A DNA stretch of 64,000 nt from positions 32,001 through 96,000 of the forward strand of contig CAVOKF010000008.1 of NCBI GenBank assembly GCA_963696385.1, written 5' to 3'. This document shows positions 5,803 through 40,858 of the stretch, in pieces (within the stretch, counting starts at the first letter, position 1; the number at the start of each line of letters is the position of its first letter). The DNA is from an uncultured delta proteobacterium. GTDB taxonomy: Bacteria; Myxococcota_A; Polyangia; Polyangiales; Polyangiaceae. Both the position numbers and the translations under genes were made by a program. The notes beneath the pieces were generated by a model, which searched no databases, was not told the DNA's origin, and worked only from the letters and a program-made list of their open reading frames with translations.

Positions 5803-6178
5803 CGGCCGTCCCCGCATCGCCGTTCGAGGCGCACGCGGGCGAACGGCTCACTTCCCCCCGAAGCCCCTCAGGCACGGCAAGACCGAACGCCTGCATCCAC
5901 TCGGCGGCGACCCAGAGTGGGCCCACGAGCAGGTAGTAGGGGTCGCCGTAGAACGCGGGCTTGTTTCCTTCGAAAACGTAATGACCCACGTACTGGAGCG
6001 CCCAACCTCCCACGAACAGGCCCGCGGCCGCCTTCGTGTGCACGAACGCCATCGGGAGCGCCGCCACAATCATCGGAATACCAATCATGTGGGTCAGTTT
6101 GGTCCCTAGATGCTTGTGCTCGCTCTCGTAAAGCGCGATGTATTGGCGTAACGTGTGTTTGGGACGCGGGAATTTCAT
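5795..6178 (-). CDS. DUF962/Mpo1-like small membrane protein
   Basis: YESEH...THMIGIP, GWALQYVGHYVFEGNKPAF; ATG at 6178. Confidence 0.85.
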   Translation of the reverse strand: MKFPRPKHTLRQYIALYESEHKHLGTKLTHMIGIPMIVAALPMAFVHTKAAAGLFVGGWALQYVGHYVFEGNKPAFYGDPYYLLVGPLWVAAEWMQAFGLAVPEGLRGEVSRSPACASNGDAGTAVS

Positions 6179-6193
6179 GGCCGATGAGCGTAA

Positions 6194-6497
6194 GACGTGC
6201 CGCGCGCCGCGCCAAGATGCCCGGAGCGCCGGCTCGTCCGCGTCAGCGCCATCCGCGGCCATGGGGTACGACGTACCGCGCGCCGCGCCAAGATGCCCGG
6301 AGCGCCGGCTCGTCCGCGTCAGCGCCATCCGCGGCCATGGGGTACGACGTGCCGCGCGCCGCGCCAAGATGCCCGGAGCGCCGGCTCGTCCGCGTCAGCG
6401 CCATCCGCGGCCATGGGGTACGACGTGCCGCGCGTCGCGCCAAGATGCCCGGAGCGCCGGCTCGTCCGCGTCAGCGCGATCCGCGAGTCGCGGCCAT
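6194..6497. repeat. 76-bp tandem repeat, ~3.8 copies
   Basis: Near-identical units start at 6194, 6270, 6346 and 6422; last copy merges into the stop and final codons of the upstream minus-strand gene. Confidence 0.95.
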
Positions 6498-8349
6498 GGG
6501 AATGGGGCCGATCGGCCATTCGGTCAAAAGAGGCGATCGGGCTCTGGGACCGGCTTGGCGAACGACGCGCGCGCACTGCTGCAGCGGAATGCGCCGCGGG
6601 CCGAATGGAGACGAATCTGCGGCATCGGAATCCATGAGAAGCGTGGGAGTGTCGATGCCGTAGTCGTCCGGGTGCCCGGGCAAATTCATCAGGACGTGCC
6701 CGAGTTCGTGGGCCAAGGTCAAACTGCTATGGGCCGCTCGGATGCCGGCTCGAATCCAACAGAACGACGTTGCGCAGGCTCGATAGGTCGCTTTCGATGA
6801 ACGACTCTCCAATGCGTCCTCCTCCAGCGAACAGCGGCACGACGACGACCTCGATCGTAGCGGGGTCGCCATCGTCGAGTGCCTTGAGCAACGTCCGCTC
6901 TTCCAATGTCCCGGCCATCGCGTCCATGTCCGTGAAATGCTGCAGGCCGTCGGAGAGATCGACCGAACCGATACGAACCGTCAACGTGCGGTCCGTCGAC
7001 AGGGGCACGCCCGGTGACACGTCCGCCGCGACCAGCACCCCATCCTTGCGTCGCAAGGAGACGTCGACGCTGGGTCCTATTCCGGGCGCGACGGTCGCAT
7101 TGACCGACACCTGCGCCGAAAGACCCACGCGCTCGGCCGCGCGAGCCAAGTCGCTCGCAACGGCGTCGGTGGTTTCAGAGGGCACGGTGCGAACCGCGAT
7201 CGACTTGCCGTCGGCTCGAAAGCGAATCTCGCCCCCACTCGCAGGCAGTCCGAGGTCATCGCCAATCGCGATCAAATGGGAGGGCGGGGGGTCGACGACC
7301 TTGACGTCGAGCAGCCGTGGATCACCGAACGTGAGTCCGCACTGGCCCCAAACGCCCGATGCGACCCCAATCTCGGCTCTCAGGGCTTGCACGGCACCGG
7401 CGTCCGTTCCCCCAATCGCAGGGGCGCCGCCCGGACTGATCCGCACGACGAAAGGACGCAACGCGGCTCGCAATCGCCCGATGGGGCCGACCGGCGAGCC
7501 GCGCGGGCCAAGCACCCGAATCATCTGCGCCTTTCTTCCGTCAGCCCGAAATACGACGGCACCGCCGACCTGCGCCTCGACGCTTCGACCGGCCGCGACT
7601 GGGTGATTGCGGTCGACGTCGTCCGTGACGAGCCGCAGCGGCAGGCTTGCCCAGCAGTGGACGCGCGCGCTTGCGACCGGGCATTGCCACTGTGTGACGG
7701 CGAGCGGGGGCAGTTCATCGATCCGCGTGCCGAGCGACGTCACGGACTCGGCCGCAATCTCTCGATCGCCGTTCGGCCACGCACCGTTGTCGGGAAGCTC
7801 GAGGACGACGCGAAGGGCGTCGGGGTCGTCGTATTTCTCGGGACTGCCCGAGACCAGCCGCTCCGGAGGATCGCGTTCGAGGGAAGCATGCGACCGCGCC
7901 ATGTCGACGCGCCGCCCCTCGCCGTCCCGCATCTCGATTCCGCGCACCTCGAGGATTACCTGAACGACCGCACCGCGTGCGGTCGCGGTCAGCTCGACGG
8001 TGCCCGGCGACAAGCCCTCGAACCATCCTGCGGACGGCAAAGAGGGACCCCATGGCGCCGGTACGCCGGCGGCCGTCACGACTCTCGCGTGCTCTGCACC
8101 CGATCGCATCTCCACGCGGGCGCCGGCGACGCGCGGGTCAATCGGCACGAAATCCACATAGGTAGGGGGCGGCAGGACGCTCTGCTCGCCGTCGGGGACA
8201 CCGTCGGCGTCGTCGTCGTCTCGATCCGCCCAGAGAGCGATTCGAAGTGTCGGGCCTTCCGCGACCGCGCCGGCAGAAGGTCCCGTCGACACGAGGCCGC
8301 CGACGAGACCGAACGCCGCCGTTATTCGAGCCAGCCCCACTGAATCCAT
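6471..8349 (-). CDS. Putative secreted zinc metallopeptidase-like protein, split by an apparent +1 frameshift at ~6753
   Basis: Signal-like N-terminus and acidic ADRDDDDADGVPDGE motif; removing one A at 6753/6754 joins NVVLLD to RAGIRAA...TLAHELGHVLMNLPGH (HExxH). Confidence 0.65.
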
Positions 8350-9713
8350 CGAAATTCGGTTTCCCCGAGCAACGTCTCGGTCGACGGACCGGTTCTCGCC
8401 GCCGCGCGGATGAGCGCTCCCCACGCGACGTTGCCGATGACTCGGGACTCGATGAACGCCTCGGCCAATTCAAGCGAGCGTGCACGGGTTGCGACCCCAC
8501 TCGGGTCGGCTGCAGGTGAGGCATCCCACAGCGCGGCGGCTGCGAGACCACGGAGGTCCTCGCGTTTCGCGCTGGCCGCCGCTTCGGCGAGAGCCGCCCG
8601 CAAATCGTCCCTCACCCGGTCCCGCGCCAAATGAAGCGCTGCCCGGATGCTGGTCTCGTCGGGCAGCGGCAATACGCGGACGAAGGTCTCGAGCATGGAT
8701 CGCGCCGCGGGCGCGCCCGTACGTGCCATTCGGAAAAGGAATGTCGTGTCTCGATCGGCGCTCGGCCGGTCGGAAAGCCGCGCAACGAGCTCGAGTGTGG
8801 GCCTCGTGGTGGGATGGGGCGGAGCGACCGTCCCCCGCACTGCCGCATCCGCTTCGCGAAGGGCCCACTCCACAAGCGACCACGCCGCGCGCGAACTGAC
8901 CGGACCGGAATGCGCGCGGGATTCGGCTTCTTGGATGGGGCCCGGGTCGCCGGCCTTGACCGCAACCTCGGCGAGCACGAGCCACCGACCCAGGTGTCGC
9001 TCCGCCCCGCGCAACACGGCGAGGGCCGGGCCCACCTGTCTGGCGAGCGGCATCGCCCGAGCGAGCGGCACAAAAAGCTCCGTGCACATCGAGATGCGAT
9101 GACTCTCCTTGATCATGGGAGCGAGTTGGGCGAGCAATGCCCCGTTCGACTCGCCTCGCGCAACTCGGGCGAGTTCGGCGCCAAAGGCGAGATGCGCCTG
9201 GCGGCTCGCAGCGATCTTGGCAAGCAACGTCGCGAGTTCGGGATCTTGCGAGAAACACGCGGCGCTCAACGCGGCGGCACCGCCCGCCTCGTCGCTTGCC
9301 AGCGCCCGCCGCAGCAGCGCGGCAGCTTGTCGATCTTGCGCTTCGGCGAGCGCACGGAGTCCACACGCATAGAGCTCCCGCTGTAGCGCGCCGCGCCGCA
9401 AGAGCACCGCCGTGGCTTCGCCGAGCGATGCCCGCAAGGCGGGACTCAACGGTGCAACCGCGCGAACGGCGCCGGCGAGCTTGGCCTCACTCGCTGGCCT
9501 GCGCTTCAAAGCCGCATCCACTTCGCCCTCGAGCCGCGTGCGGGTCGCTTTGTCGAGAATCTCCGCTCGCGCGATAGGGGGACGAACCGACGCCGAGAGC
9601 GACTCGGCGCGCTGCGTCGTCTTGGCGAGGGGCGGGACGGCGGGGGCTCGCCCCCATGCCACTGGCCCCTCCCTTCGGAGGGCGCCTTCCGCTCGGACCC
9701 GCTTTGCCTTCAT
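8322..9713 (-). CDS. Hypothetical Ala/Leu/Arg-rich helical (HEAT-like) protein
   Basis: Long ORF; GGGGGA upstream of ATG 9713; the upstream ORF extension runs through the repeat array and was discounted. Confidence 0.65.
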   Translation of the reverse strand: MKAKRVRAEGALRREGPVAWGRAPAVPPLAKTTQRAESLSASVRPPIARAEILDKATRTRLEGEVDAALKRRPASEAKLAGAVRAVAPLSPALRASLGEATAVLLRRGALQRELYACGLRALAEAQDRQAAALLRRALASDEAGGAAALSAACFSQDPELATLLAKIAASRQAHLAFGAELARVARGESNGALLAQLAPMIKESHRISMCTELFVPLARAMPLARQVGPALAVLRGAERHLGRWLVLAEVAVKAGDPGPIQEAESRAHSGPVSSRAAWSLVEWALREADAAVRGTVAPPHPTTRPTLELVARLSDRPSADRDTTFLFRMARTGAPAARSMLETFVRVLPLPDETSIRAALHLARDRVRDDLRAALAEAAASAKREDLRGLAAAALWDASPAADPSGVATRARSLELAEAFIESRVIGNVAWGALIRAAARTGPSTETLLGETEFRWIQWGWLE

Positions 9714-9817
9714 CGAATGCGTTCCCCCGTCCTGGGCGCGCGCGCCCGCAGGCTGGACCATATCAGAGGCACGGCGCGACTCGACGACGATCGTCCTAGA
9801 AAAAATGTCCGCGGCAC

Positions 9818-10176
9818 GACCCCACGCCACGACCCCACGCCACGACCCCGCGTCCACGATTCCGCGCCACGGCTTCGCGTCACGATAGATTCCGCGCCAC
9901 GATCCCGGGCCACGGCTTCGCGTCACGATAGATTCCGCGCCACGACCCCGGGCCACGGCTTCGCGTCACGATTCCGCGCCACGATTCCGGGCCACGGCTT
10001 CGCGCCACGATTCCGCGCCACGATTCCGGGCCACGGCTTCGCGTCACGATAGATTCCGCACCACAATTCCGCGCCACGGCTTCGCGTCACGATAGATTCC
10101 GAGCCACAATTCCGGGCCACGGCTTCGTGTCACGATAGATTCGGCGTCACGATTCCGGGCCACGGCTTCGCGCCAC
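9818..10176. repeat. 13-bp satellite (26 monomers) with a 39/43-bp higher-order unit
   Basis: Monomers gattccgcgccac / gattccgggccac / ggcttcgcgtcac in seven trimers, five preceded by gata. Confidence 0.95.
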
Positions 10177-10181
10177 GACTT

Positions 10182-10229
10182 ATCGCCGGGAGGCGATTGG
10201 GGGTCGGGGCCGAGGCCCCAAGGAAATCA
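10182..10229. repeat. REP-like palindromic element, copy 1
   Basis: atcgcc-ggga-ggcgat hairpin, then ggggccgaggcccc hairpin and aaggaaatca; second copy at 52021. Confidence 0.75.
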
Positions 10230-10302
10230 CTTTAAGTACGGCGGCAACCTGCAAAGCGAGCATGCCCTCGCGAAGCTGGGTACCGTTCAAGGGGGCGCTG
10301 CA

Positions 10303-13300
10303 CTAAGCCCGGGCCAAGGCAATCGTGAGCGGTTCGCCGTCCAGATCGACGGCGCGCTGCTCATAACCGGCAGGGATCCGACCTGTTTCAATTTCGATTG
10401 CGAGGATCTCGCGCGCGAGCGCCCCCTCGTAGAGCTTGACGACGGCGGCGACCCGATCGCTTCCCAAGACCGCGAGCCGTACGCGATCCGTGTATTCGAG
10501 CCCCATTTCCTTACGCATCGATTGAATTCGATTCTGAAGCTCGCGCAGCAAGCCGAGGTCGCGCAGCTCGTCATCGAGCTGCGTATCGAGCAGGACGACG
10601 CCGACGCGATCGCCCGCAGCCGCGAAACCTTCCTTTGCGAGAAAATCCACCTCGACATCGTCACGGCCGAGCTCCACGCCATCGAGCGTGACGGAATGGC
10701 CCGCGAGAAGCCGCGACGCGAGCGAGCCGGCCGCGGTCGAGGAGAATGCGGCCATGACCCTCTTCAATGCCTGCGCCTCTTTACCGAGACCTCGTTGGCC
10801 AAGCGACCGGAAGTTGGGCTTCACGCGGAACTCGACGTACCGACTTGCCTGCTCGACGCTGCAAATCTCGACGCCATGCAGGACATTGAGCTCCTCCATC
10901 AGCAAACCGACGGCGGAGGGATCCATGAGTTCGGGCTTGGACGTGATGACGACCGCCGATCGCAAGGGCTGGCGCACCCGGATCTTGGCGTGCGTGCGGA
11001 CCTGCAAACCCAGCGAGACCAGCGCCCGCACCGCGGCAACCTTGATCGATAGGGCTTCGTCGACGGCGGCAAGGTCGGCTTCGGGCCAGTCCGCCAAGTG
11101 GACGCTCTCGGGGGCGATCCGTCCTCTGGCGGCGGCGGGTCCGACCACGAGGTTCTGCCACATTGCCTCTGCGGCATAAGGCGTGAATGGCGCCGTCAAT
11201 TTCGCGATCGCCACGAGACACCCATGAAGCGTCTGGTAAGCGCTCTGCTTGTCGTCGTCCCAACCAGAACGCCAGAACCGCACGCGACTTCGCCGCACCC
11301 ACCAGTTCGACAAGGCATCCACCAGCGTGCCGAGCCTCTGCGTCGCACCAAACACATCGTAGGCATCGAGCGCCGACGTCACCTCGCGCACGGTGACCGC
11401 CAGCTCGCTCGCGATCCACCGATCGAGCTCCGGTTTGACGACCACGGCGAGTGGGTCGGTGCGGTGCGGATCGAAGCCGTCGATGTTCGCGTAGATCGTG
11501 AAAAACGAATAGACGTTGCGAAGCTTAATCGCGAATTCCTTCTGCAGAGCGCGCACGTTCGAAAGCGAATGGCGCGTGGCCGACCATGAAGGGCTGGACG
11601 CATAAAAGAACCAGCGAAAGGCGTCGGCCCCGGGCGCCGGCGACTCGGGATCCTCGATCGTGACTCGTTGCTCGATGGGCAGCCTGGAGACGGCCGACGG
11701 CGCCACGTCGACCCCCTCCGTGGGCAGGACGCCGAGGCTGGCGCGGTCGTCGGGGTGCAGGACGACCGCGCGGCGGCCGGCGATCTTGGTCGCACGGACG
11801 ACCAAGTCGACGGCATTGCGGATCGCGCCGTCTCGGTAAACCCTTACCCGAGCGCCCTCTCGCAGGTCGAGGCCTTCGAGATCGTCGCGATTCATCAACG
11901 CGGCACCGTGAACGGCCGCGGGGGCATCTTTGACCGCGAAGTCCATCGCGACGCGATCCAAGATGATCTCCGGCGGGGTGTAGTTGCCTCTGCTCTTGCT
12001 CTCCTTCTTTCCCTCTTTGTCCATCACGTGTCCGAGCACCAGACACGTCTTGTACGGATGCGGCGGTGCGCGCCGGTCGAACACGAGCGTGGAGACCATC
12101 AGCAACGAGTAGAACCAGCCCCGCGTTTGATCGATCGCTTCGCTGATGAAATCGGCGGGAAACGCTGCTTCGAATTGCTGCTCCGATCCGGGCGCGTGGG
12201 GATATCCCCACTGCGCGAAGGGCATGCACCCGGAGTCGAACCAGACATCGACGACTTCGGAAACGCGCCGCATCGTTCCCTCGCATCGGTCGCACGGCAC
12301 GGTGACCTGATCCATCCACGGCTTGTGGACCATCAGATGCTCGCTGAGAGACGGATCCGCCCGCCGCGCGGCGTGGAAGTGGTCGAACGCACGGGCGTTG
12401 CGCCGCTCGATGTCGGCCACGCTCACCAGCGCCTCTTTGTGATCGGAGTCCCGATCGCAAACCCAAACATTAAGCGGAGTCCCCCAAAAGCGCTCCCGGG
12501 AGAGCGCCCAGTCGACGTTGTGAGCGAGGAAGTCACCGAAGCGCCCCTCCTGGATGTGGTCGGGCGTCCACTGCACCGCGCGGTTGTTCGCGATCGCGCG
12601 ATCGATCACGGCGGTCGTGCGGATGTACCACGCGGGTCGCGCGTACTGAATGAGTGGGTCGTTGTCGGCGCGCCAGCAAAAGGGGTATTCGTGACGGTAG
12701 GGCTCCGCGTGCACGAGTAAACCGCGATCCTTCAAGTCGCGCTGGATATCCTTGTCGCAATCTTTGACCCAGCGACCCGCGTAACGCTCGAAGCGTTCGA
12801 AGAACGTGCCGTCGGGCTTGACGGGGCAAAAGAGCGGCAGTCCGGGTCGATCGCGGGCCAGCCGGCGATGGACGTCGTGATCGTCCTCGCCGAACGCGGG
12901 CGCAACATGCACGATGCCCGTTCCCGCCTCGATCGTGACGAAGTCCGCCGCCATCACGTGCCACACGACGTCCTCGAAGCCGCGCACCTGGTCTTCGAAG
13001 AGGTCGAACGGCGGTCGGTACGCCAAGCCGACGAGATCGCGGCCCATCCTGCTCTCTTCGACGGCCACCGGGCCCCCCAATGCCTTGGCGAGCGGTTCGA
13101 TCAGTCCCCTGGCGAACACGAAGCGACGCCCGCCGGCGACCCGCGCGATCACGTACTCGATCTCCGGGTGAACCGCGGCGTACATGTTCGAGGGAAGCGT
13201 CCACGGCGTGGTCGTCCAGATCAGCAGGGCCAGATCGTCCTCGCCGACGATCGGGAAGGCCACATGCACGCTCGGATCTTCGACGGTGCGGTACCCCTGC

Positions 13301-13896
13301 CCGACCTCACCCGCGCTCAGCGCCGTGCCCCCCTGCGCCCACCACCACACGACCTTGTGTCCCTGATAGAGCAGGCCCTTCCTGAACAGCTCGCCCAGGG
13401 CCCACCAAACACTCTCGACGTAGGATCGGTGAAACGTGACGTACGCGTCGCTGAGGTCCACCCAGAAGGCGACGCGAGCGGTCAGATCTTCCCAGGATGC
13501 CGTATATCGAAAGACGGAGTCGAGGCACTTTTTTACGAACGGCTCGACCCCGTAGTGCTCGATGGCGGCCTTGCCATGCAGGCTGAGCTCCTTTTCGACT
13601 TCGACTTCGACGGGCAGGCCATGGGTGTCCCATCCCGCCTTTCGCGGGACGCTCCAGCCGCGCATCGTCTTATAGCGGGGAAACAGGTCCTTGATGACGC
13701 GCGTGAGTACGTGTCCGTTGTGGGGCATGCCGTTGGCCGTCGGCGGCCCCTCGTAGAACACGAATCGTCCCTTTGGCGCCGGGCGCGCGAGCGTCTTTTC
13801 GAAGATGCGACGGTCCTTCCAGAACTGAAGCGTCCGGCGTTCCTCTTTCGGAAAATCGAGCTCGGTTGGGACCCTCGCGAAGAGCGGACCAGGCAT
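10303..13896 (-). CDS. ileS: Isoleucine--tRNA ligase, type 2-like, with KESKS variant and internal insertion
   Basis: FYEGPPTANGMPHNGH, GWDTHGLPVE, WTTTPWTLPSN, DWALSRERFWGTP, DQTRGWF, KKESKSRGN. Confidence 0.96.
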   Translation of the reverse strand: MPGPLFARVPTELDFPKEERRTLQFWKDRRIFEKTLARPAPKGRFVFYEGPPTANGMPHNGHVLTRVIKDLFPRYKTMRGWSVPRKAGWDTHGLPVEVEVEKELSLHGKAAIEHYGVEPFVKKCLDSVFRYTASWEDLTARVAFWVDLSDAYVTFHRSYVESVWWALGELFRKGLLYQGHKVVWWWAQGGTALSAGEVGQGYRTVEDPSVHVAFPIVGEDDLALLIWTTTPWTLPSNMYAAVHPEIEYVIARVAGGRRFVFARGLIEPLAKALGGPVAVEESRMGRDLVGLAYRPPFDLFEDQVRGFEDVVWHVMAADFVTIEAGTGIVHVAPAFGEDDHDVHRRLARDRPGLPLFCPVKPDGTFFERFERYAGRWVKDCDKDIQRDLKDRGLLVHAEPYRHEYPFCWRADNDPLIQYARPAWYIRTTAVIDRAIANNRAVQWTPDHIQEGRFGDFLAHNVDWALSRERFWGTPLNVWVCDRDSDHKEALVSVADIERRNARAFDHFHAARRADPSLSEHLMVHKPWMDQVTVPCDRCEGTMRRVSEVVDVWFDSGCMPFAQWGYPHAPGSEQQFEAAFPADFISEAIDQTRGWFYSLLMVSTLVFDRRAPPHPYKTCLVLGHVMDKEGKKESKSRGNYTPPEIILDRVAMDFAVKDAPAAVHGAALMNRDDLEGLDLREGARVRVYRDGAIRNAVDLVVRATKIAGRRAVVLHPDDRASLGVLPTEGVDVAPSAVSRLPIEQRVTIEDPESPAPGADAFRWFFYASSPSWSATRHSLSNVRALQKEFAIKLRNVYSFFTIYANIDGFDPHRTDPLAVVVKPELDRWIASELAVTVREVTSALDAYDVFGATQRLGTLVDALSNWWVRRSRVRFWRSGWDDDKQSAYQTLHGCLVAIAKLTAPFTPYAAEAMWQNLVVGPAAARGRIAPESVHLADWPEADLAAVDEALSIKVAAVRALVSLGLQVRTHAKIRVRQPLRSAVVITSKPELMDPSAVGLLMEELNVLHGVEICSVEQASRYVEFRVKPNFRSLGQRGLGKEAQALKRVMAAFSSTAAGSLASRLLAGHSVTLDGVELGRDDVEVDFLAKEGFAAAGDRVGVVLLDTQLDDELRDLGLLRELQNRIQSMRKEMGLEYTDRVRLAVLGSDRVAAVVKLYEGALAREILAIEIETGRIPAGYEQRAVDLDGEPLTIALARA

Positions 13897-14105: not shown

Positions 14106-14366
14106 CTACTCCGCCGCAGCGCTCGCGTCCTTGGCTTCCAGTTTCTTCACGACCAGGGCACACGCGTTTTCGAGATCGCTGAAATCCGCGAGCTCTTCGT
14201 CCTCGATCTTGATGCGGTACTGCCGCTCGACGGCCGCAACGATCTCGGCGCCCATCATGGAGTCGATACCGAGCTCCTTGAACGTGGCCCCATCGGCGAT
14301 CTCGTCCTTTTCGGCGATCTCGATGACCAGGGCGCGCAGCTCTTCCTTCAACCGTTCGTTCGACAT
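14106..14366 (-). CDS. Acyl carrier protein
   Basis: Acidic 86-aa protein with LGIDSMM phosphopantetheinylation motif; AGGAG RBS. Confidence 0.9.
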   Translation of the reverse strand: MSNERLKEELRALVIEIAEKDEIADGATFKELGIDSMMGAEIVAAVERQYRIKIEDEELADFSDLENACALVVKKLEAKDASAAAE

Positions 14367-14390
14367 GTCACTTCTCCTCGTGGCGCCGCC

Positions 14391-14660
14391 TCAGGTCAGC
14401 CGCTTCTCGACTTCGTCGAGAAGATCCCGAATGGTCTCGATGCCGTCCAATCCTTCGTCCGGTATCTGAATGCGCAGCCGGCGTTCAAGCGAGCCAATGA
14501 TCTCGAGCATTCCCAAAGAATCGATGGCCAGATCGCGGATGGCGCTCGCTTCAAGGACACCGTGGAAGTCCTTTTCGACCACCTCACTCGCCGTTTCGCG
14601 GAACATGGTGAGCAGGTCGAGGCGCGTGGGCCGCGCCGGATCAGCTTGCAAGGGATGCAT
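14391..14660 (-). CDS. Acyl carrier protein
   Basis: LAIDSLGMLEII motif, IPDE...TIRDL; start uncertain. Confidence 0.88.
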   Translation of the reverse strand: MHPLQADPARPTRLDLLTMFRETASEVVEKDFHGVLEASAIRDLAIDSLGMLEIIGSLERRLRIQIPDEGLDGIETIRDLLDEVEKRLT

Positions 14661-14810
14661 TGCGTCGCGCATTCAAACGCTTTCCTGCGGTTGTGTGTCC
14701 AGAAATCGGGCGCGTAGAGGGATACGCGGTTGCCGCTTCACGATCTTTGCTCCACGACCCGATGTCTCTCGCCGCTTCGATGACCGGCGCGGAAAAACGC
14801 ATTCCGAAAT

Positions 14811-16598
14811 TCATTGGGGCTCGACGCCTCCTCGATCGGGCTCGGTCCCTTGCACGACCCGTGCGCGCGGCAGCGTTCCCTCCAGATACATCTGACGCGC
14901 CTTTCTCCGTTGGGGCTTTCCGCTCGACGTTCGCGGCAGCGAGGCCAGCTGCGCCACGACGACCTCGTGCGGCGTCAGGCCGAACTGCGCGGCAACGGTT
15001 GCGCTGGCCGCGTCGCGAATCGCCTCGGCCTCGCTGCCGGTGCCCTCGCAACAGACGACCAAATGCTCCTCGCCCCCGCCGTCGGCCGCAGGGCGCCCGC
15101 GCGAATCCATGAACACTCCAAACGCGACGACGTTGCCCCGGCGCACAGTGTGAATCTGACCGACGGCCCACTCGATATCCGTGGGGTAATAGTTGCGGCC
15201 CCGGACGATGATCACGTCCTTGAGCCTGCCGCACACGAAAAGACGGTCCCCGGCCAGATAGCCGAGGTCGCCGGTGAATAGCCACGGGGCTTGCCCCGGG
15301 AGGTCGTCGGCAAGCGACTTGAACGTCTGCGCTGTCGACTCGGGGTCCTGGAAATAGCCCGCCGTGACGCTCGGGCCGCGCGTGACGATCTCGCCGACTC
15401 TGCGCTGAGCGAGCCGATGCCCCGAGGGATCGACAATCGCAACCTCGTGGCCAGCGAAGGCCGATCCGCAATCGACCATCTCGATCGCCCCGTCCGTCCT
15501 CGACGGCAGCGCGTCGTGGCTCGACAACGCGGTCGGATCGACCGGGTCGGTGTGCAGCCCCGCTCCGAGCGGAGCGAACGTGATGGCCAGTGTCGCTTCG
15601 GCCATGCCGTACGACGGCAAAAATGCGCGAGGATCGAAGCCCGCGGGCGCCAGCTTGGCGGCGAAGTCGCGCAGTGCCTTGGGCTGAATGGGCTCGGCCC
15701 CGCAGCCGGCCACCCGTAAGGCCGACAGGTCCAGTCCCTCGACATCCTTGTCCTTGATGCGCTTGGCCACGAGCGCGTAGGCAAAGTTCGGCGCATACGT
15801 GATCGTCCCGCGATGCGCGTGGAGTTTCTCGAGCCACAAACGGGGCGTCCGGATGAAGCTTGCGGTCGGCAAGAACACGCACGCCACATTCGTGAAGAGA
15901 GGCCCCACCACGAAGCCGATGAGCCCCATGTCGTGGAACAAGGGCAGCCAGCTCACGCCCTTGTCGGTTCGCGAGTCGCGCGCCAGGCCCTCGATCATGA
16001 ACGCCTTGGAATTGGCGGCGAGATTGCCGTGGGTCACAGCGACCCCCTTAGGGCGAGACGTGCTGCCGCTCGTGAATTGCAGGAAGGCGACGTCGTGCGG
16101 AGCGACGTCCACTTCGACGACGGACGCCGCGTCATCGGCCCATTGTTCGACCGTCACGATCGAGCGCAGCGTGTCGACCTGCTCCAGTGCGGGCTGCACG
16201 AACGCTTGGGTGGCTGCCGTCGTCAGCAGCATCGTGGCGCCCGACGCTCGAACGATGTGGGCGACCGTAGCGTGATAATTTTCGACGTTCTTGAACGAGA
16301 GCTGAGGGACCAACGGGACCGGCACGACTCCGGCGAACAGCGCCCCGAGAAACGAGAGCACGAACTCGTCGTTGTCCGGAATGACCAGCGCGATACGATC
16401 TCCTTTTTTGAGACCTCGCGCCGCGAGGCTCGCGCCCCGCCGCGTCGCTTCGATGCCGATGTCGTGAAACGATACGAGCCGCTCGGTGCCGTCCGCCCGG
16501 ACGAACACGAACCCGCGCGTTCGCTCGTCCGCCAGCGCGCGCACGGCATCGACGAGCGTGCGAGGCGTCCGGGCGGCGCCGTGACGGAAATCTTGCAT
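14811..16598 (-). CDS. Fatty acyl-AMP ligase (FAAL)
   Basis: FLQFTSGSTSRPKGV, SWLPLFHDMGLIG, SYGMAEAT followed by FAAL-type insertion, TGDLGY, GRLKDVIIVRGRN, LPRTSSGK. Confidence 0.92.
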   Translation of the reverse strand: MQDFRHGAARTPRTLVDAVRALADERTRGFVFVRADGTERLVSFHDIGIEATRRGASLAARGLKKGDRIALVIPDNDEFVLSFLGALFAGVVPVPLVPQLSFKNVENYHATVAHIVRASGATMLLTTAATQAFVQPALEQVDTLRSIVTVEQWADDAASVVEVDVAPHDVAFLQFTSGSTSRPKGVAVTHGNLAANSKAFMIEGLARDSRTDKGVSWLPLFHDMGLIGFVVGPLFTNVACVFLPTASFIRTPRLWLEKLHAHRGTITYAPNFAYALVAKRIKDKDVEGLDLSALRVAGCGAEPIQPKALRDFAAKLAPAGFDPRAFLPSYGMAEATLAITFAPLGAGLHTDPVDPTALSSHDALPSRTDGAIEMVDCGSAFAGHEVAIVDPSGHRLAQRRVGEIVTRGPSVTAGYFQDPESTAQTFKSLADDLPGQAPWLFTGDLGYLAGDRLFVCGRLKDVIIVRGRNYYPTDIEWAVGQIHTVRRGNVVAFGVFMDSRGRPAADGGGEEHLVVCCEGTGSEAEAIRDAASATVAAQFGLTPHEVVVAQLASLPRTSSGKPQRRKARQMYLEGTLPRARVVQGTEPDRGGVEPQ

Positions 16599-16758
16599 GC
16601 GGCCGCGGCGGCTGTAACGCGCAGCAACGAAAGACGCAAGGAGGAGGTTACGCGCGATCCGTGCCGTCCGGCTTCCCGGCTTCTTGGGGGGTGCGTTCAT
16701 TTCTTCGCGTCCGCGGCGTTGCTCGGTTGTGCAGGGCGGCGCTACATAAGGGTGCTCT

Positions 16759-18057
16759 GTGCTCCAGCGCGTCTATGTCACGGGGGTCGGGGTCGTCAGC
16801 TCCATCGGGTTGGGCAAGGCCGCGTTTTTTCGTTCGCTCGAAGCCGGCGCCAGCGGCATTTCGCGAGTGACCGCGTTCGATGCATCACCGCTCGGCCGCC
16901 ATTATGCGGGCGAAGTCAAGGCTTTCGACGCTCGCGACTACCTCACCGATGCCGAGTGTCGGCGCATGGGCCGCTGCTCCGCCATGGCGCTTGCGGCGGC
17001 CCGTATGGCGCTCGCCGACGCGGAAATGCCCGCTCTCGCGGTTGCCGGACCGCGCACGGCGGTCGTTCTCGGCACGACGATGGGCGAGGCGCGCATCCTG
17101 GAGGAGCTCGACCACGAATGGATTCTCGGCGGAGAGCGAGCGGTTTCGCGCGCACTGATTCCACGATACGGATCGACGCTGCTGCCCATTCACGTGGCTC
17201 GGGCGATCGGTGCACGAGGCATGGTGCTCGCCCTGCCTGCAGCATGCGCGGCGGGAAACTACGCGCTCAGTTTCGGTGCGGATTTGATCCGCGCGGGTCG
17301 CGCGGACATCGTCGTGGCGGGTGCAGCGGAATTGCTGCAGGCGCTTCAGTTCAGCGGCTTTGTCCGGTTGGCGGCGATGGCGCCGGAGAAGTGCCAGCCC
17401 TTCGATTTGAATCGCCAAGGTCTGCTGCTCGGCGAAGGCGCGGGCCTTCTGGTTCTCGAGAGCGAGGCCCATGCTCGACGTCGAGGCGCGCGCCTGCAGG
17501 CCGAGGTCGGCAGCTACGGGTTCTCGTGCGATGCGTACCACATCACACGGCCTCATCCGGACGCGACCGGAAGCATTGCGGCGATGCAGAGCGCCATCGA
17601 ACGCTCCGGGATCGCTCCGGCCGACGTCGATTTCGTCAACGCCCACGGAACGGGCACCAAGCACAATGACGCCGCCGAATCGAAGGTCGTGCGCGAAGTC
17701 TTCGGGGACCGGCGCCTGCCCGTGTCCAGCATGAAAAGCATGCTCGGCCACTGCATGGGTGCGGCAAGCGCGCTCGAAGCGATCGGTTGCGTGTTCACGA
17801 TCGAGACGGGCATCTACCCGCCCACGATCGGGTACGACACGCCGGATCCGGAATGCGACATGCAAGTGGTCGCGAACGTGGCGCGACGTGGAAGAAGCGA
17901 CATCGTGGTCAACAACTCGCTCGCGTTCGGCGGCTACAACGCCGTGACGGTCTTCGCGAAGCCCGGGGTTCTGCCGCCGCCCCGCCGCTTTCCGCCGTCC
18001 GACGGGCGGCCGGCCCTCGTTCGGGCGGTGCGCCACCAAGGCCCCCCGTACCCATGA
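16759..18057 (+). CDS. Beta-ketoacyl-ACP synthase (FabF/type II KS-alpha-like, active)
   Basis: Triad AACAAG, NAHGTGT, KSMLGH; NSLAFGG. Confidence 0.93.
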   Translation: MLQRVYVTGVGVVSSIGLGKAAFFRSLEAGASGISRVTAFDASPLGRHYAGEVKAFDARDYLTDAECRRMGRCSAMALAAARMALADAEMPALAVAGPRTAVVLGTTMGEARILEELDHEWILGGERAVSRALIPRYGSTLLPIHVARAIGARGMVLALPAACAAGNYALSFGADLIRAGRADIVVAGAAELLQALQFSGFVRLAAMAPEKCQPFDLNRQGLLLGEGAGLLVLESEAHARRRGARLQAEVGSYGFSCDAYHITRPHPDATGSIAAMQSAIERSGIAPADVDFVNAHGTGTKHNDAAESKVVREVFGDRRLPVSSMKSMLGHCMGAASALEAIGCVFTIETGIYPPTIGYDTPDPECDMQVVANVARRGRSDIVVNNSLAFGGYNAVTVFAKPGVLPPPRRFPPSDGRPALVRAVRHQGPPYP

Positions 18058-19265
18058 TGGATCGCGCGATCACCGGTTGCGGCGTGGTCTCGGCGCTGGG
18101 CACCGGTCGGAACGCGTTCTTCGCGGCCCTGGCGTCAGGGGCGCGCGCAACGTCCGACACCGGGCGCGTCGAGACGTTCGACGCCTCCAAGTACGCTGGA
18201 GCGCTCGTCGCGGAGGTACGTGGATTCGACGCGGCGAAGCACCTCGGCGACAAGGGCCTCCGAACCCTCGACCGTCTTTCGAAGCTGCTGATTGTGGCGA
18301 CCCGCCTCGCGCTCGACGACGCCGGGCTCAAGACCGGGGGACGGTGGATCGCGCACGGCGAAGGCGATCCGCCTTGGCCCGACCGGGTCGGTCTCGTCGT
18401 GTCCAACGCGTATGGCTCGCTCGAAGCGATTACGGAGCTTGACCGCGTCGCCTTGCTGGAGGACGCCCGCTACATCAACCCCTCGCGTTTCCCGCTTACC
18501 GTCTCGAACAGTGCCGCAGGCTACGCAAGCATTTGGGAGGAGCTGCGGGCTTTGAACGTGACGGTGAGCGACGGAAACTGCGGCGCCCTCGATGCGGTCG
18601 CGTGCGGCGATCTGTTGCTCGAAAACGCGCGAGCCGACGTCCTTCTCGTCGGCGGCGCCGAGGCCTTGACCGAAGCGCTGTTCGTGGGATTCCGCAGGTT
18701 GGGCATGGACCTGCACGCCGGCGTTCACGACGGCTCGTCCGCCGGCGCGTGCCTCGGCGAGGGCGCCGCACTCGTCGCGATCGAAACGGCCGAGGGGGCA
18801 CGCCGGCGCGGCGTCGAGTCATTGGCCGAAATTCGGGGATACGGCACGTCGTTCGCTCCACCGGAGCGCGCAGGGTCGTTGGTCCATGCGACGTCCGACG
18901 CCCTCGAGCGCGCCATCGTCGACGCGATCGCAGACGCGGGCATCGACCGCGACCAGGTCGACCTGGTCGTCTCTGGAGTTTCCGGGTTGCGCGCATTCGA
19001 CGAGGCAGAGCTCACGGCGATTCGCCGCGTCATGGGGGCTGATGCGCTGATCGTCGCGCCGAAGCTTGCCTTCGGCGAGACGCTCGGAGCCAGCGGTGCG
19101 ATGGCCATCGCCGCGACGCTCGGATACTTGCGCGACGTACCGATTCATTGTCTGGCACCCGAGGTGCGTCCGAACGTGCGCGGCCGGCTGCGCACGGCTG
19201 TCGTCACATCGATGGGGTTTTACGGCAATGCGTCGGCGCTCGTCATGCACCGCGCTTCGCGCTAG
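18054..19265 (+). CDS. Inactive ketosynthase-fold protein (chain-length-factor-like)
   Basis: KS fold (LGEGAA, GYGTSF, FGETLGASG); by manual alignment Cys->Asn and HGTGT->GVSGL; ATGA overlap with upstream KS. Confidence 0.85.
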   Translation: MMDRAITGCGVVSALGTGRNAFFAALASGARATSDTGRVETFDASKYAGALVAEVRGFDAAKHLGDKGLRTLDRLSKLLIVATRLALDDAGLKTGGRWIAHGEGDPPWPDRVGLVVSNAYGSLEAITELDRVALLEDARYINPSRFPLTVSNSAAGYASIWEELRALNVTVSDGNCGALDAVACGDLLLENARADVLLVGGAEALTEALFVGFRRLGMDLHAGVHDGSSAGACLGEGAALVAIETAEGARRRGVESLAEIRGYGTSFAPPERAGSLVHATSDALERAIVDAIADAGIDRDQVDLVVSGVSGLRAFDEAELTAIRRVMGADALIVAPKLAFGETLGASGAMAIAATLGYLRDVPIHCLAPEVRPNVRGRLRTAVVTSMGFYGNASALVMHRASR

Positions 19266-19345
19266 AACCGACCGCACTATGCCCGCGCCGGCCATCCGGG
19301 CGAGCGACACCTGACCCGGATCCACCAACGCGAGAGGGACATGCC

Positions 19346-20611
19346 ATGGTAGCCGTCGCCAAACGGGAGCGTTCGGTGAGTTGGATCGAAGCGAAGGCGC
19401 GGGCGGATACGACTCTTGCGCGGGTCCGCGAGGGCCGCGAACTGCAGCTCTACCCCTTTTTCCGTCCGTTCGATTCGGGCGGGTTGCACGCGCAGCTCGA
19501 CGGCAAGGCGATCGTCAACTTCAGCTCGAACGATTATCTGGGCCTGACCACCCACCCGCGGGTCAAAGAGGCCGCCAAGCGCGCGGTCGACGAATACGCC
19601 TGTGGGTTGTCGTCGTCGCGCCCGCAGGCGACCACCCGCGAGCACGTCCGGCTCGAGGAGCGCCTTGCCCGATGGATGGGGTTCGAGAGGTGCCTGACGT
19701 TCACGACCGGCTACCAGGCGATGCTTGGCACCATCGCCGCACTCGCGGACAAGGACACGACGCTGGTCCTCGACGCGTACAGCCACGCCTGCATCTTGGA
19801 TGGATCGTTTCTCGCCGCCGGCATTCCGAAGGGCGGGCCGGAAATCCGATTCTTCAACCACAATTCGGCCAAGAGCCTCGAGCGGGTCCTCAAGACCCGC
19901 GAGCGCAAGAACGCCCTGGTCGTGTGCGAGGGCGTTTACTCGCTCGACGGGGACACCGCCCGCTTGCAAGAGTTCGTCGATCTCTGCGACCGCTACGAGA
20001 GCCCCCTGCTCGTCGACGACGCCCACGGAACCGGAACGATGGGTGCGACCGGTCGAGGCACGATCGAGGCGTTGGGACTGCAAGGCAAGGTTCCCATCGT
20101 CGTGTCGACACTTTCGAAGACCTTCGGCGGCATCGGGGGCTTGCTGCTGGGATCCGCCGAAGTCGTCGATCTCGTACAGTATGCAGCGCGAAGTTTTCTG
20201 TTCAGCGCTTCCCTGCCCGTCCCCATCGTCGCGGCCGCGTCGGCCATTCTCGATATGCTCGAATCGGACGGCGAAGCGCTCGTCACGGAACTTCATGATA
20301 AGGCGCGTTATTTCCGCGAGGGCCTCACGAAAGTCGGATTCGATTTGGGTTCAAGCAATACGCACATCATGCCCGTCATGTGCCGCGAAGAGCGAAAGGC
20401 GCTCTTCATGCACATCGCGCTGCTCGAGTGCGGCGTCTTCATGGTGCCGCTCATCTATCCATCGGTGAAACTGGGAGAAGAGCGCCTGCGGGTCAACGTC
20501 ACCCGCGGGCATACGCGCGAGGACCTCGATCGCGCCTTGGAATTGCTCAAGGAATACGGAGAGGCGTTCTTCGTTCTGTCGGGCGAAGACATCGGCCCCA
20601 GGGAGCCGTGA
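19346..20611 (+). CDS. PLP-dependent alpha-oxoamine synthase (SPT/BioF/KBL family)
   Basis: NFSSNDYLGL, DAYSHAC, EGVYSLDGD, DDAHG, STLSKTFGGIGG, FLFSASLP. Confidence 0.9.
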   Translation: MVAVAKRERSVSWIEAKARADTTLARVREGRELQLYPFFRPFDSGGLHAQLDGKAIVNFSSNDYLGLTTHPRVKEAAKRAVDEYACGLSSSRPQATTREHVRLEERLARWMGFERCLTFTTGYQAMLGTIAALADKDTTLVLDAYSHACILDGSFLAAGIPKGGPEIRFFNHNSAKSLERVLKTRERKNALVVCEGVYSLDGDTARLQEFVDLCDRYESPLLVDDAHGTGTMGATGRGTIEALGLQGKVPIVVSTLSKTFGGIGGLLLGSAEVVDLVQYAARSFLFSASLPVPIVAAASAILDMLESDGEALVTELHDKARYFREGLTKVGFDLGSSNTHIMPVMCREERKALFMHIALLECGVFMVPLIYPSVKLGEERLRVNVTRGHTREDLDRALELLKEYGEAFFVLSGEDIGPREP

Positions 20612-20615
20612 TCGA

Positions 20616-20879
20616 TCAGGGTCGCGCCGAGGCCTGGGGCCGCTGCAGCGACAGAACCGCACGCGCGACGTCCTCGACCGTGGAAATGTGCTCGAACATT
20701 TCGGCCGAAATGTTGACCCCGAAGTAGCTTTCGACGTCCGAGACGAACTCCATGACCCCGAGGCTGTCCAGACCGAGGTCGTTCTGAATATGGTCCGTCG
20801 GGCGTACTTCCCGCGCCTGGTCCACGTGACGGCGAACCAGCTCGCACGTGATCTTCAGCGACTCGTCGTAGCTGGACAT
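20616..20879 (-). CDS. Acyl carrier protein
   Basis: DLGLDSLGVMEFV motif, ISTVEDV. Confidence 0.9.
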   Translation of the reverse strand: MSSYDESLKITCELVRRHVDQAREVRPTDHIQNDLGLDSLGVMEFVSDVESYFGVNISAEMFEHISTVEDVARAVLSLQRPQASARP

Positions 20880-20888
20880 GGGGTGAGG

Positions 20889-21536
20889 TTACCAGCGCCG
20901 AGCCAAGGCGTCATCGATCGAGCGCGCCACGCGGCTGGGCTCGGCGCTGGCCAGCAGTCCGCGGATGAGCGCGACGCCATCGGCTCCCGCCTTGCCACAC
21001 GCGGCTGCGGTCTCTGCCGTGACGCCACCCAGCGCGTAAACGAACGGCCCGCCCCGGGCAATCGACTGCGCGGATCGTAGTGCCTCGAGTCCTCGTTGCG
21101 CCTTGTGCCGGCCAGACAAAGACGGGGACCGTGTACGAAAGATCGGACTGACGAGGACGGCATCGGCACCTTCGTCGCACGCTCGCCGAACGTCGTCGTC
21201 GGTGTGGGCCGCCACAGATACCCAGGCGCGCCGGGCAAACACGGCGCGTGCCTCTTTGACCGATCCCGCGCCACCGCCGAGATGCACGCCGTCGGCTCCG
21301 ACGTCCCGTGCGACCCCCGCATCGCCGTTGACGAAGAGCGCCGCACCGGCCGCACGGGTCGCATCGCGAAGCCGTGCGGCAAACAGCCGCAGACTCACGA
21401 CGGGGCGCGCCTTGTCGCGCAGTTGCACGCCGAACGATCCGCGCGGCAGGGCTCGACCGACGTCGCGCACGCAGCGAAGGATCTGGTCGTCGCCGAACAC
21501 CGGGTCCGTGACGAGCACGATCCGGGGAAGCGTCAT
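20889..21536 (-). CDS. thiE: Thiamine phosphate synthase / TenI family protein
   Basis: VQLRDK, ADGVHL, AAH, SPIFRT, YALGGV; ATGA overlap with thiG. Confidence 0.8.
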
Positions 21537-22447
21537 TCGATGGCGCGCGCGCCGCTCGCTTTGTCGCTCACGGCGCTCGATTGGTCGGCCACCGCGACGC
21601 TCGGTTTGTCGCCCGTCACCGCGATCGCTTTGTCGCCAACCGATCCGATGACTCCTGAAGTCGGGCTCGACGCGTTCGCGTATCGGCGTTTGGGCATTCG
21701 CCCGGCGAGAAACGCTTTGCGTCCCGCGCTCACGGCTTCGCGCATCGCTTCGGCCATCAGGGCCGGATTGCCGGCGTGCGCGATGGCGGTATTGAGCAGA
21801 ACCCCCTGGCAGCCGAGTTCCATCGCGACTGCGACGTCGCTCGCCGTCCCCACGCCCGCATCGACGATGACCGGCACGCGAGCCTGCTCGAGGATGATCT
21901 CCAGGTTGTGAGGGTTGCGAATGCCCAGGCCGCTTCCGATCGGCGCCGCCAGCGGCATGACCGCCGAGCAACCGGCATCTTCGAGCTTGCGGCACAGGAT
22001 CGGATCGTCGATGCAATAGGGCAAGACGACGAACCCTTCGTGGACGAGCTGCCGCGCCGCGACGAGCGTCTGCTCGTTGTCCGGGTAAAGCGTCCTCGGA
22101 TCCCCGATCACCTCGAGTTTGACCATGGGACCTCGAGACGGCGACCGACCATCCTCGGGCGACGCCATCCCGAGGTCGCGCGCCAGCCGCAACGTTCGAA
22201 CCGCCTCGTCGGCCGTAAAACATCCGGCCGTGTTGGGCAACACGATCCACTTCCTTCGCGCGACGAGCGCCATGAGCGACCCGGCCGATCGATCGGCGAG
22301 ATCGACGCGACGCAGTGCGACCGTCACGATCTGCGCGCCGGAAGCGACGATGGCACGCTCGGTCTCGGCCACGTCCTTGTACTTGCCAGTGCCGACGATC
22401 AGCCGGCTCTGGAATTCGTGGCCCGCGATGACGAGAGGATCTTGCAT
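21533..22447 (-). CDS. thiG: Thiazole synthase
   Basis: [47 protein letters not shown]. Confidence 0.96.
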
Positions 22448-23343
22448 TGCGCTCCGAGTGTAGCCTCGCCGGCGCCGCGGTCGACCACCGGCGATCGCGG
22501 ATCCCGCCACCGGCGATGAAGCCACAGCCACTGACTCGGAACCTCACGTACGAATCTCTCGAGCGCCCGAGTTGCTTCGACGGTGGCCCGATCGATCCAT
22601 GCACGCCGCGCTCGAACCGGAGGCCAAAGCACGCTCAGGACATGCAACACGTGGTCGCCGTCGTCGCGCCGACGGAATGCCGCTACGACCAGAGGAGCTC
22701 CCGAACGCGCCGCCAGAGCGGCCGGGGCACGGTCCGACCATGCGCCGCGACCCAGAAAATCGACCCGCACCGCATGTCGACACGAGGCCGGGACCTGATC
22801 GATCATCATCGCAACGGCCCCTCCTTTTCGAAGAGTGGCGCGCGCACGCGCCATGGCCCCCGAGGCGGGCGCCAGCGTCACGCCGTGTCGCGTTCGGGTC
22901 GACTGCCAAAAATCGTCCAACGAGGCACTCTTCAACCGCTTCGTGACGACCAAAAGCTGGATCTGCCTCGCCATGGCGCACGCGGCGAGATCCCAATTGC
23001 CCGTGTGCGAAGCCGCGATCACGACGCCCCGCCCCGCGGCCACGGCGCGCGTCCAGACCGCGCGCGAAGACGCGTGCATCGACACATGCTCGGTCGCCTC
23101 CCCGGCGCTGCGCGCGGCCAGCCAAAGAAACTCGGCCGCGGATGTTCCGAGAGATCGGTACATGGCCCGCGCACTTCGGGCGGGATTGCGAACGCCCGCG
23201 GTTCGCAGTCCCCGGTCGACGTGGGATCGTCGGATCCGAAGCACGCTGCCGGCGATCCATCCGATCGCAGCGCCGACCCAGGGCAGGGCCGACCATGGCA
23301 ACCTCCCGACGAGCGCCGTCAGCGCGCGCCATGCCGCAGCCAT
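22399..23343 (-). CDS. Lipid A lauroyl/lysophospholipid acyltransferase (LpxL-like)
   Basis: SHTGNWD (HX4D), [14 protein letters not shown]. Confidence 0.88.
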
Positions 23344-39965: not shown

Positions 39966-40858
39966 CAGCCGAATCTCCCTGTTATGTAATCTTCGGTTTC
40001 GCGCTCTTTGGGACGGGTGAAAATCGTGGTCGTGTCCGCGACTTCGACCAGCCGACCCATGTAAAAGAAACCGGTGCGCTGGGACACGCGCGCGGCCTGC
40101 TGCATGTTGTGCGTCACGATGACGATGGTGAGGTCGTCGCGCAGCTCGGCGACGAGATCCTCGATCTTCGCCGTCGCAATCGGGTCGAGCGCGCTCGCAG
40201 GCTCATCCATCAGCAGGACCTCTGGTTCGACCGCCAGCGCGCGCGCGATGCACAACCGCTGCTGTTGGCCGCCGGACAACCCCAGACCCGATTCGTCCAG
40301 CCTGTCTTTGACTTCGTCCCAAAGCGCCGCATGCCGCAGAGCGCGCTCGACTCGCTCGCCGAGCACGGCTCGCTCGTTGACGCCGGAAATACGCAATCCG
40401 TAGGCGACGTTCTCGAAGATCGACTTCGGGAACGGATTGGACCGCTGAAATACCATTCCCACTCGGCGCCGGACGAGCACGGGATCGACGTCGGGGCCGT
40501 AAATGGCCTCCCGGTCGAGCTCCACGTGCCCGGAGACCGAGACCCCGGGCACCGTGTCGTTCATGCGGTTGAGCGACCGGAGAAATGTGCTCTTGCCGCA
40601 GCCACTCGGGCCAATCAGCGCGAGGACCTGCTTCGCGTACACGTCGATCGTCACGTCTTTGATCGCGACCTTTTCGCCGTAGCGAACGGTCAATCCGCCG
40701 GCGCGCATCTTCAGCTGAGCCTCCGCGCTCGAAGACAAAGTCGCCGCAGCGGCCACGGGCGGGACTTTGGGGCCTGCGAAAGATTGTCCCGTGCCACCTG
40801 GGTGACGATCGCGTGACGTCCCGCGGGGCGGTCGATTCGGATCGTCGGCCTCGCTCAT
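39965..40858 (-). CDS. pstB: Phosphate ABC transporter ATPase PstB
   Basis: [35 protein letters not shown]. Confidence 0.97.

Follow-up and report, generated by a model that had tools for sequence, protein, structure and literature searches.

We analysed a gene cluster at positions 14106-20879 of a 64-kb stretch of contig CAVOKF010000008.1 (assembly GCA_963696385.1, an uncultured member of the Polyangiaceae); this whole stretch is called the window below. The host genome (G000) is 96% complete, and the host belongs to the same myxobacterial order as Polyangiaceae, Labilithrix and Sandaracinus. Pfam matches and the list of open reading frames (ORFs) gave seven genes. Two acyl carrier protein (ACP) genes and a fatty acyl-AMP ligase (FAAL) gene lie on the minus strand, and the divergent plus-strand genes encode a ketosynthase (KS), an inactive KS partner resembling a chain length factor (CLF) and an alpha-oxoamine synthase (AOS). 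A third ACP gene, the seventh, is convergent with the AOS gene. The features are as follows.

14106..14366, minus strand: ACP1, stand-alone carrier of 86 aa and last gene of the FAAL operon (PP-binding, 3.1e-11; DSM serine motif)
14391..14672, minus strand: ACP2, stand-alone carrier of 93 aa, 31% identical to ACP1 (PP-binding, 5.7e-07; DSL motif)
14811..16700, minus strand: FAAL, homologue of the acyl-ACP synthetase AasR (AMP-binding, 4.1e-64)
16701..16758: divergent intergenic region of 58 bp between the FAAL operon and the KS operon
16759..18057, plus strand: active FabF-type KS of 432 aa with Cys163/His296/His331 (ketoacyl-synt N and C domains)
18054..19265, plus strand: inactive, CLF-like KS partner of 403 aa with Asn/Gly/Glu replacing Cys/His/His (ketoacyl-synt N and C domains)
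19346..20611, plus strand: AOS of 421 aa, probable serine palmitoyltransferase (SPT; Spt as a bacterial protein) of its lineage (Aminotran_1_2, 2.2e-47)
20616..20879, minus strand: ACP3, stand-alone carrier of 87 aa, convergent with AOS and downstream of thiE (PP-binding, 1.4e-11)

The Pfam domains and coordinates bore out the gene content and arrangement given in the initial annotation, and by the coordinates the gap of 4 nt between the stop of AOS and that of the convergent ACP3 is real. Two gene starts were corrected: the partner gene begins at 18054, its start codon sharing the sequence ATGA with the stop codon of KS, and AOS most likely begins at 19346, after the GAGAGGGA stretch. The cluster is flanked by the isoleucyl-tRNA synthetase gene (IleRS, 10303-13896, minus strand) on one side and by a thiG-thiE pair on the other.

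The catalytic triad of the KS, Cys163, His296 and His331, is invariant in 30 orthologues. At the corresponding positions the partner carries Asn, with a Cys one residue later, and then Gly and Glu. Among 32 partner orthologues, Asn-Cys-Gly at the former cysteine (Asn175) shows almost no variation and Gly-Glu at the second histidine (Glu342) shows none, while the Gly at the first histidine position was read in the sequence of this locus itself. The best solved match of the KS was 9s5h chain B (8.9e-116, 390 bits), followed by B. subtilis FabF (2e-87, 297 bits); that of the partner was chain C of the same entry (1.7e-45, 159 bits; 1.2e-68 with the family profile), with FabF at about 1e-28 (102 bits). 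Chain C, too, is without the cysteine and carries Gly-Glu at the site of the second histidine, and the sister entry 9s5i includes an ACP of 80 aa. These two entries are probably the amxFabF2/amxFabFmut heterodimer of the anammox bacterium Brocadia fulgida and its ACP-crosslinked form, an identification drawn from shared features because the PDB codes do not appear in the accessible portion of the preprint that describes the pair.

A structural model of the KS with its partner gave a heterodimer score of 0.96, compared with 0.00 for the best of three controls (partner pLDDT 90, with runs agreeing in at least 90% of contacts). Of 157 solved complexes 116 attained this mark, as did 2 of 215 mismatched pairs; since similar KS dimers have been solved many times, the result may reflect likeness rather than binding. 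When the predicted structure of the partner (pLDDT 83) was used as query, a fold search returned only FabF-type KSs (Z about 47) from a fold library in which 9s5h is absent, and a search of the ESM Atlas returned only generic KS clusters. In public annotation, that of the cultured Pendulispora species included, the partner is a 'hypothetical protein' or a 'beta-ketoacyl synthase N-terminal-like domain-containing protein'.

The arrangement was compared across the 80 loci most similar to this one, whose titles name uncultured Polyangiaceae, 'Myxococcales', Labilithrix, Sandaracinus and the like; denominators are the loci with enough flank for the given gene. The partner gene lies directly upstream of AOS in 55 of 75 loci, under several family-level labels, and upstream without adjoining it in 10 more; it was not found in the other 10. 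KS is upstream of AOS in 53/67 loci and FAAL in 43/61, and of 59 loci 36 have two ACPs upstream of AOS, 13 have one and 10 have none. The adjacency of partner and AOS at this frequency indicates that the gene arrangement is not due to chance. Where a locus looks incomplete, the missing genes are often found elsewhere in the same genome. We also drew 41 genomes of relatives, covering the genus and 16 other families of the order, and 38 of them carry a CLF orthologue, the misses being G002 (66% complete), G032 and G034. One unpublished genome (G010) is included in the counts of loci and of relatives; the latter become 39/40 for AOS, 40/40 for the ceramide synthase bCerS and 37/40 for CLF when it is excluded. 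Conservation of the gene order in relatives, which the initial annotation had named as a check on its proposal, was thus confirmed. In one Labilithrix-labelled metagenome-assembled genome (MAG; L041:5481-7870), three ORFs without a Pfam match (370, 153 and 232 aa) lie between CLF and AOS.

A profile of the partner exceeded 300 bits in 19 of 201 genomes sampled across the phylum, all members of this order; the next genome down reached 182 bits. Orthologues were also found in the cultured species Pendulispora brunnea and P. rubella. KS and CLF are jointly missing in G032, G034, G084, G190 and G238, where only FabF-level KS matches (36-42% identity) were obtained, so that, judged by sequence, KS and partner come and go together. 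As a side observation, a CLF orthologue (560 bits) is present in G131, a single-contig genome of 1.8 Mb from the same family that is 96% complete; the other genomes sampled from the group span 2.7-11 Mb. When the profile was run against 1.8 billion representatives, the orthologue family was followed by fused two-KS proteins of about 815 aa (P0149, P0153, P0154 and P0158), whose C-terminal half scored 290-324 bits on the CLF profile, above the FabF level; one of these bears the name 'chain length factor' in a Moorella MAG. The host genome has a second cluster of carrier and KS genes at C6:255300-260100 (locus L119, about 7322-12106), in the order acyl-CoA dehydrogenase, ACP, KS, a second KS-like gene, a FabG-like short-chain dehydrogenase/reductase (SDR) and a hexapeptide transferase, which we take to recall the acpXL-type very-long-chain fatty acid clusters of rhizobia.

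The closest solved relative points to one possible role for such a pair. According to the accessible text of a 2026 preprint, amxFabF2/amxFabFmut decarboxylates malonyl-ACP and forms acetoacetyl-ACP, prefers C6-C8 chains and did not elongate hexanoyl-ACP in vitro, and its dead subunit influences the chain-length preference (10.64898/2026.05.19.726425). By this precedent, the KS/CLF pair could be a primer or de novo synthase that decarboxylates malonyl-ACP and builds the whole acyl chain on a dedicated carrier with borrowed enzymes of type II fatty acid synthesis (FAS II), leaving FAAL for salvage only, and the presence of two ACPs in the operon would suit such a role. However, FAAL is kept with KS/CLF in the 43 of 61 loci mentioned above, which argues for a fatty-acid starter, and a housekeeping acpP-fabF pair is present elsewhere in the genome. 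The residue at the former cysteine also speaks against it: the CLFs of aromatic type II polyketide synthases (PKSs) have Gln at this position, where it plays a role in decarboxylative priming, whereas the partner has Asn in nearly all 32 orthologues. We consider de novo synthesis by the pair unlikely.

The combination of FAAL, ACP and AOS corresponds to a known module. In the accessible parts of the source, bacterial sphingolipid synthesis is described in terms of five genes, AasR, AcpR, Spt, CerR and bCerS (PMC9386255). There, work on Caulobacter and E. coli BL21(DE3) showed that the dedicated carrier AcpR is charged by AasR, a FAAL-like acyl-ACP synthetase, and that Spt prefers acyl-AcpR as its substrate; the three proteins were found to yield 3-oxosphinganine, and epi/CerR together with aca/yghO (bCerS) complete dihydroceramide synthesis (PMC9386255). 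The same text places acpR-aasR operons of Myxococcus, Stigmatella and Sorangium 'in different genomic contexts', and within it no KS is mentioned, 'ketoacyl' having zero occurrences (PMC9386255).

Over 569 residues, the FAAL of the cluster shares 34% identity with AasR of E. coli BL21(DE3) (E 3e-99). Its best NCBIfam model is fatty acyl-AMP ligase, at 483 bits and under the cut-off of 600, and its closest solved structures are FAALs (3pbk at 4.4e-90). The AOS keeps the lysine for pyridoxal phosphate (STLSK, from the translation) and is 35% identical to Spt of E. coli B (E 4e-66), which is no closer than its likeness to enzymes of the BioF/KBL type. Homologues for the later steps are present on contig C4 of the host genome, with a YghO/bCerS homologue at C4:709636-710763 (35% identity, E 7e-85) and, immediately downstream, a CerR-like SDR that is 34% identical to the reductase of the E. 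coli cluster (E 7.7e-35). bCerS was found in all 41 relatives, and in genome G026 it is divergent from the AOS orthologue and adjoins it. PF13444, tried as a proxy for bCerS, proved to be the wrong family, as it had no match in G000 or in the Caulobacter control. The initial annotation had spoken of a candidate new pathway, and this is too strong: FAAL, ACP and AOS make up the published AasR-AcpR-Spt module (PMC9386255), as far as the accessible text describes it, and the bCerS and CerR genes are present. A match to a characterised pathway, which had been named as grounds for dropping the proposal, was thus found for one half of the cluster only; the FAAL-ACP-AOS core is known, and the KS/CLF-like pair embedded in it is new.

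We further compared the AOS with other members of its family. G000 has only two AOS-family genes, the one in the cluster and a BioF next to BioD on contig C4. The extra AOS genes of six genus-mates are KBL, two of them at 590-596 bits against a cut-off of 493 and the other four 75% identical to those. An orthologue of the AOS is present in 40 of the 41 relatives at 65-97% identity; the exception is G034, where the best match is 39% identical. G034 has instead a CFB-like SPT (locus L126:4184-5446, minus strand, contig C15) that reaches 461 bits on NF047600 (cut-off 640), compared with 298 bits for the AOS of the window. By sequence, therefore, the order holds two different Spt-like lineages. 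SPTs of the CFB type are reported for Bacteroidetes and some delta-proteobacteria in the part of the source available (PMC9386255). On C215 of G034, which is without CLF, a FAAL adjoins a KS (42% identity). Taken together, the homology, the single non-BioF AOS in the genome, the co-occurrence of bCerS and CerR and the replacement in G034 suggest that the AOS is probably the SPT of this lineage.

Two other clues about the AOS were set aside. The idea of a Sorangium-like organism that lacks lipopolysaccharide and for which Spt is essential was dropped, as G000 has LpxC at 166 bits. Two Myxococcota loci without KS (L062:6756-7649 and L075:6748-7641) have an ACP and a serine O-acetyltransferase of the CysE/EpsC type ahead of the AOS orthologue; the neighbourhood in L075 further includes an HpnA-like epimerase and a MaoC dehydratase. 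As indications of function these neighbours were uninformative, the hexapeptide protein being of the CysE type with three paralogues in G000 and the epimerase being HpnA-like.

The DS(L/M) serine motif is present in each of the three ACPs. In distant relatives, the ACP that remains next to FAAL or AOS is of the ACP1 type, since ACP1 is the best match both of the single ACP of Sandaracinaceae-type loci and of the ACP adjoining AOS in L062 and L075, and ACP2 is an extra paralogue. ACP3, which the initial annotation had counted as a member, ends 4 nt from AOS but is linked to thiE rather than to AOS: it adjoins thiE in 27 of 28 loci and AOS in only 20 of 72, lies 9 nt after thiE in the window, and stays with thiE where thiE and AOS are apart (L020, L021, L028, L033 and L053). 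Because ACP3 travels with thiE, its membership is uncertain, and it may serve Spt as an additional carrier or just be co-transcribed with thiG and thiE. On its family profile, E. coli AcpR scored 45.8 bits and housekeeping AcpPs scored 35.8-41.3 bits, which is a small margin.

The cluster could also have two functions rather than one. FAAL-ACP-ACP and KS/CLF might make a special fatty acid for some other lipid, with the AOS beside them as an independent Spt acting on acyl-CoA, acyl-AcpP or acyl-ACP3. It would agree with this that the ACP family beside AOS is the most AcpR-like of the three, that G239 keeps IleRS-ACP-ACP-FAAL-KS-CLF together and has AOS elsewhere beside thiE, and that KS lies apart from CLF and AOS in two Sandaracinus-labelled genomes (L054 and L070). 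Two separate functions would, however, sit poorly with a CLF directly upstream of AOS in most of the comparable loci and across several family-level labels, with a FAAL that is an AasR homologue, and with CLF orthologues confined to the order that has this AOS clade, as seen in the drop from above 300 to 182 bits across the sampled genomes of the phylum. We find this reading improbable.

We lean, by a modest degree, towards reading the cluster as the first module of ceramide synthesis with an extra KS/CLF enzyme. In the first step, the AasR-type FAAL would adenylate a free long-chain fatty acid and load it onto ACP1 and/or ACP2. The heterodimer of KS and dead partner may then condense the ACP-bound chain with malonyl-ACP, housekeeping FabG, FabZ and FabI would finish the elongation cycle, and the partner's share of the substrate tunnel could set the final chain length. 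The Spt-type AOS would next join acyl-ACP and L-serine into a base of the 3-oxosphinganine type, as its homology and the genome content suggest, and the YghO/bCerS and CerR homologues on contig C4 would N-acylate and reduce this base to dihydroceramide. The first, third and fourth steps draw on homology, gene content and neighbourhood, and the second, the weakest, draws on analogy. The chemistry first suggested for the cluster, in which FAAL loads, KS/CLF acts and AOS releases a long-chain alpha-aminoketone, is compatible with all the findings, elongation by the pair being a presumed step.

Several observations weigh against the ceramide reading. The short-chain preference of the anammox pair and its failure to elongate hexanoyl-ACP fit poorly with elongation to C15-C17, and the cluster has no ketoreductase (KR), dehydratase (DH) or enoylreductase (ER) gene, so that elongation must borrow FAS II enzymes. 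KS, CLF and AOS are scattered in some genomes. An AOS orthologue with 69% identity is present in G032, which is 100% complete and has neither KS nor CLF. The AOS reaction as such thus does not require the pair, which looks like an add-on acting on the acyl substrate before Spt. Among the references, E. coli AcpR has the lowest score on the family profiles of ACP1 and ACP2 (16.9 and 17.5 bits, respectively). Lastly, the AOS is under every curated SPT cut-off (298 vs 640 bits on NF047600, 286 vs 500 on NF047599 and 221 vs 670 on NF047603) and also under those for bioF (320 vs 426) and KBL (302 vs 460 and 273 vs 493). Its scores on the NCBIfam models for BioF, KBL and SPT are about equal, with ALAS also among the matched families, and its use of serine is for these reasons unproven.

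The lack of KR, DH and ER genes within the cluster, already stated in the initial annotation and upheld here, also invites a different chemistry. In prodiginine synthesis, RedL or PigJ/PigH provides the model for handing on a chain that has not been reduced. By the same logic, an unreduced 3-oxoacyl-ACP from KS/CLF could be used directly by the AOS and give a non-canonical base, for example a 5-oxo/5-hydroxy sphingoid base or a cyclised 2-alkyl-pyrrolinone, and the list of parts (adenylating enzyme, carriers, KS with inactive partner, AOS) is the same. The AOS that is 69% identical in KS/CLF-less G032 suggests, on the contrary, the same plain acyl substrate, and the bCerS and CerR that are universal in relatives need a normal base. 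The cluster lies between IleRS and thiE, with no genes for tailoring, export or regulation. All proteins here are separate, in contrast to the fused tandem KS and the ACP-ACP-AOS fusion of the PigJ/PigH or RedL type, and the PigJ model gave 76 bits against a cut-off of 900. Direct use of an unreduced chain therefore seems to us very unlikely.

Some other features of the window were noted. A 571-aa 'ThiE' ORF at 20889-22604 (minus strand), whose ThiE domain is C-terminal, is an artefact of two overlapping frames; the real genes there are thiG in the other frame (21533-22531, minus strand; Pfam ThiG, 355 bits) and a shorter thiE at about 20889-21500. Further lipid-related genes encode an Mpo1-like protein of the 2-hydroxy fatty acid dioxygenase family (5795-6367, minus strand) and a protein of the fatty-acid desaturase family (52214-53146, minus strand). 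A GT21 glycosyltransferase (40855-42057, minus strand) was rejected as evidence of glycosphingolipids because it is HpnI-like, at 237 bits against a cut-off of 310. For none of these three genes did a link to the cluster emerge.

In the literature available, including the accessible text of the 2026 preprint, CLF-type heterodimers have so far been reported only for polyketides and for anammox ladderane lipids, and the preprint calls the anammox pair the first chain length factor in a fatty-acid pathway (10.64898/2026.05.19.726425). Our literature search, which did not take in the main 2022 paper on the ceramide pathway, returned no paper linking a KS or CLF to bacterial Spt, and queries by locus tag of myxobacteria led only to PMC9386255. 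We tentatively put forward, with considerable doubt, that a CLF-type KS heterodimer has been recruited into sphingolipid synthesis across a myxobacterial order, working on a private ACP either as a ruler of sphingoid-base length or, more boldly, as a supplier of an unreduced 3-oxoacyl chain to Spt. If KS/CLF does feed Spt, the bacterium would set the chain length of its sphingoid bases independently of its bulk fatty acids, and the pair would be the second natural chain length factor in the synthesis of membrane lipids rather than polyketides. The genetically intractable anammox FabF2/FabFmut pair would then also gain a relative in culturable myxobacteria (Pendulispora). Handover of an unreduced chain, if true, would mean a new class of oxygenated or cyclised long-chain bases. 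What makes the pair noteworthy is its conservation across the order, the recent characterisation of a structural relative and the prospect of testing it in myxobacteria that can be cultured. The two Spt-like lineages matter for predicting sphingolipid producers from metagenomes, because the clade described here falls under the curated SPT cut-offs.

Finally, we compared the cluster with the known systems. As in the AasR-AcpR-Spt system of Caulobacter crescentus and E. coli BL21(DE3), a FAAL-type synthetase, a dedicated ACP and an AOS are clustered, and YghO and CerR homologues, adjacent to each other, are present in the genome. Unlike in that system, a KS/CLF-like pair sits between FAAL and AOS, the number of ACPs is two or three rather than one, the genes for CerR and bCerS are on another contig, and the AOS is under the curated SPT cut-offs. 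The CFB-type SPT (NF047600) belongs to the same superfamily and presumably catalyses the same reaction, and the AOS of G034, at 461 bits, is nearer to it than the AOS of the window, at 298. Type II PKS KS/CLF pairs (actinorhodin, 1tqy; Iga11/Iga12 of ishigamide, 6kxd; AntD/E, 6smo) share translationally coupled genes and the principle of a heterodimer, which is predicted here. The partner differs from their CLFs in its scores, 58-61 bits for the actinorhodin CLF and Iga12 and 47 for AntE against about 100 for ordinary FabF, and the cluster differs from aromatic type II PKSs in having no cyclase or aromatase genes and in the Asn where those CLFs have Gln. The likeness to amxFabF2/amxFabFmut of ladderane Cluster I, as far as the accessible preprint text describes it, goes further: each consists of an active FabF-like KS and a neighbouring paralogue without Cys-His-His, both partners have Gly-Glu at the site of the second histidine, and each pair belongs to a lipid rather than an aromatic polyketide pathway. 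By the same text, the anammox partner has Val or Thr at the cysteine site, where the partner here has Asn followed by Cys; the anammox genes run from mut to FabF2, where KS here precedes its partner; and the anammox cluster includes an ACP of its own, FabZ and radical SAM enzymes but neither FAAL nor AOS, which are the genes that accompany the pair in the present cluster.

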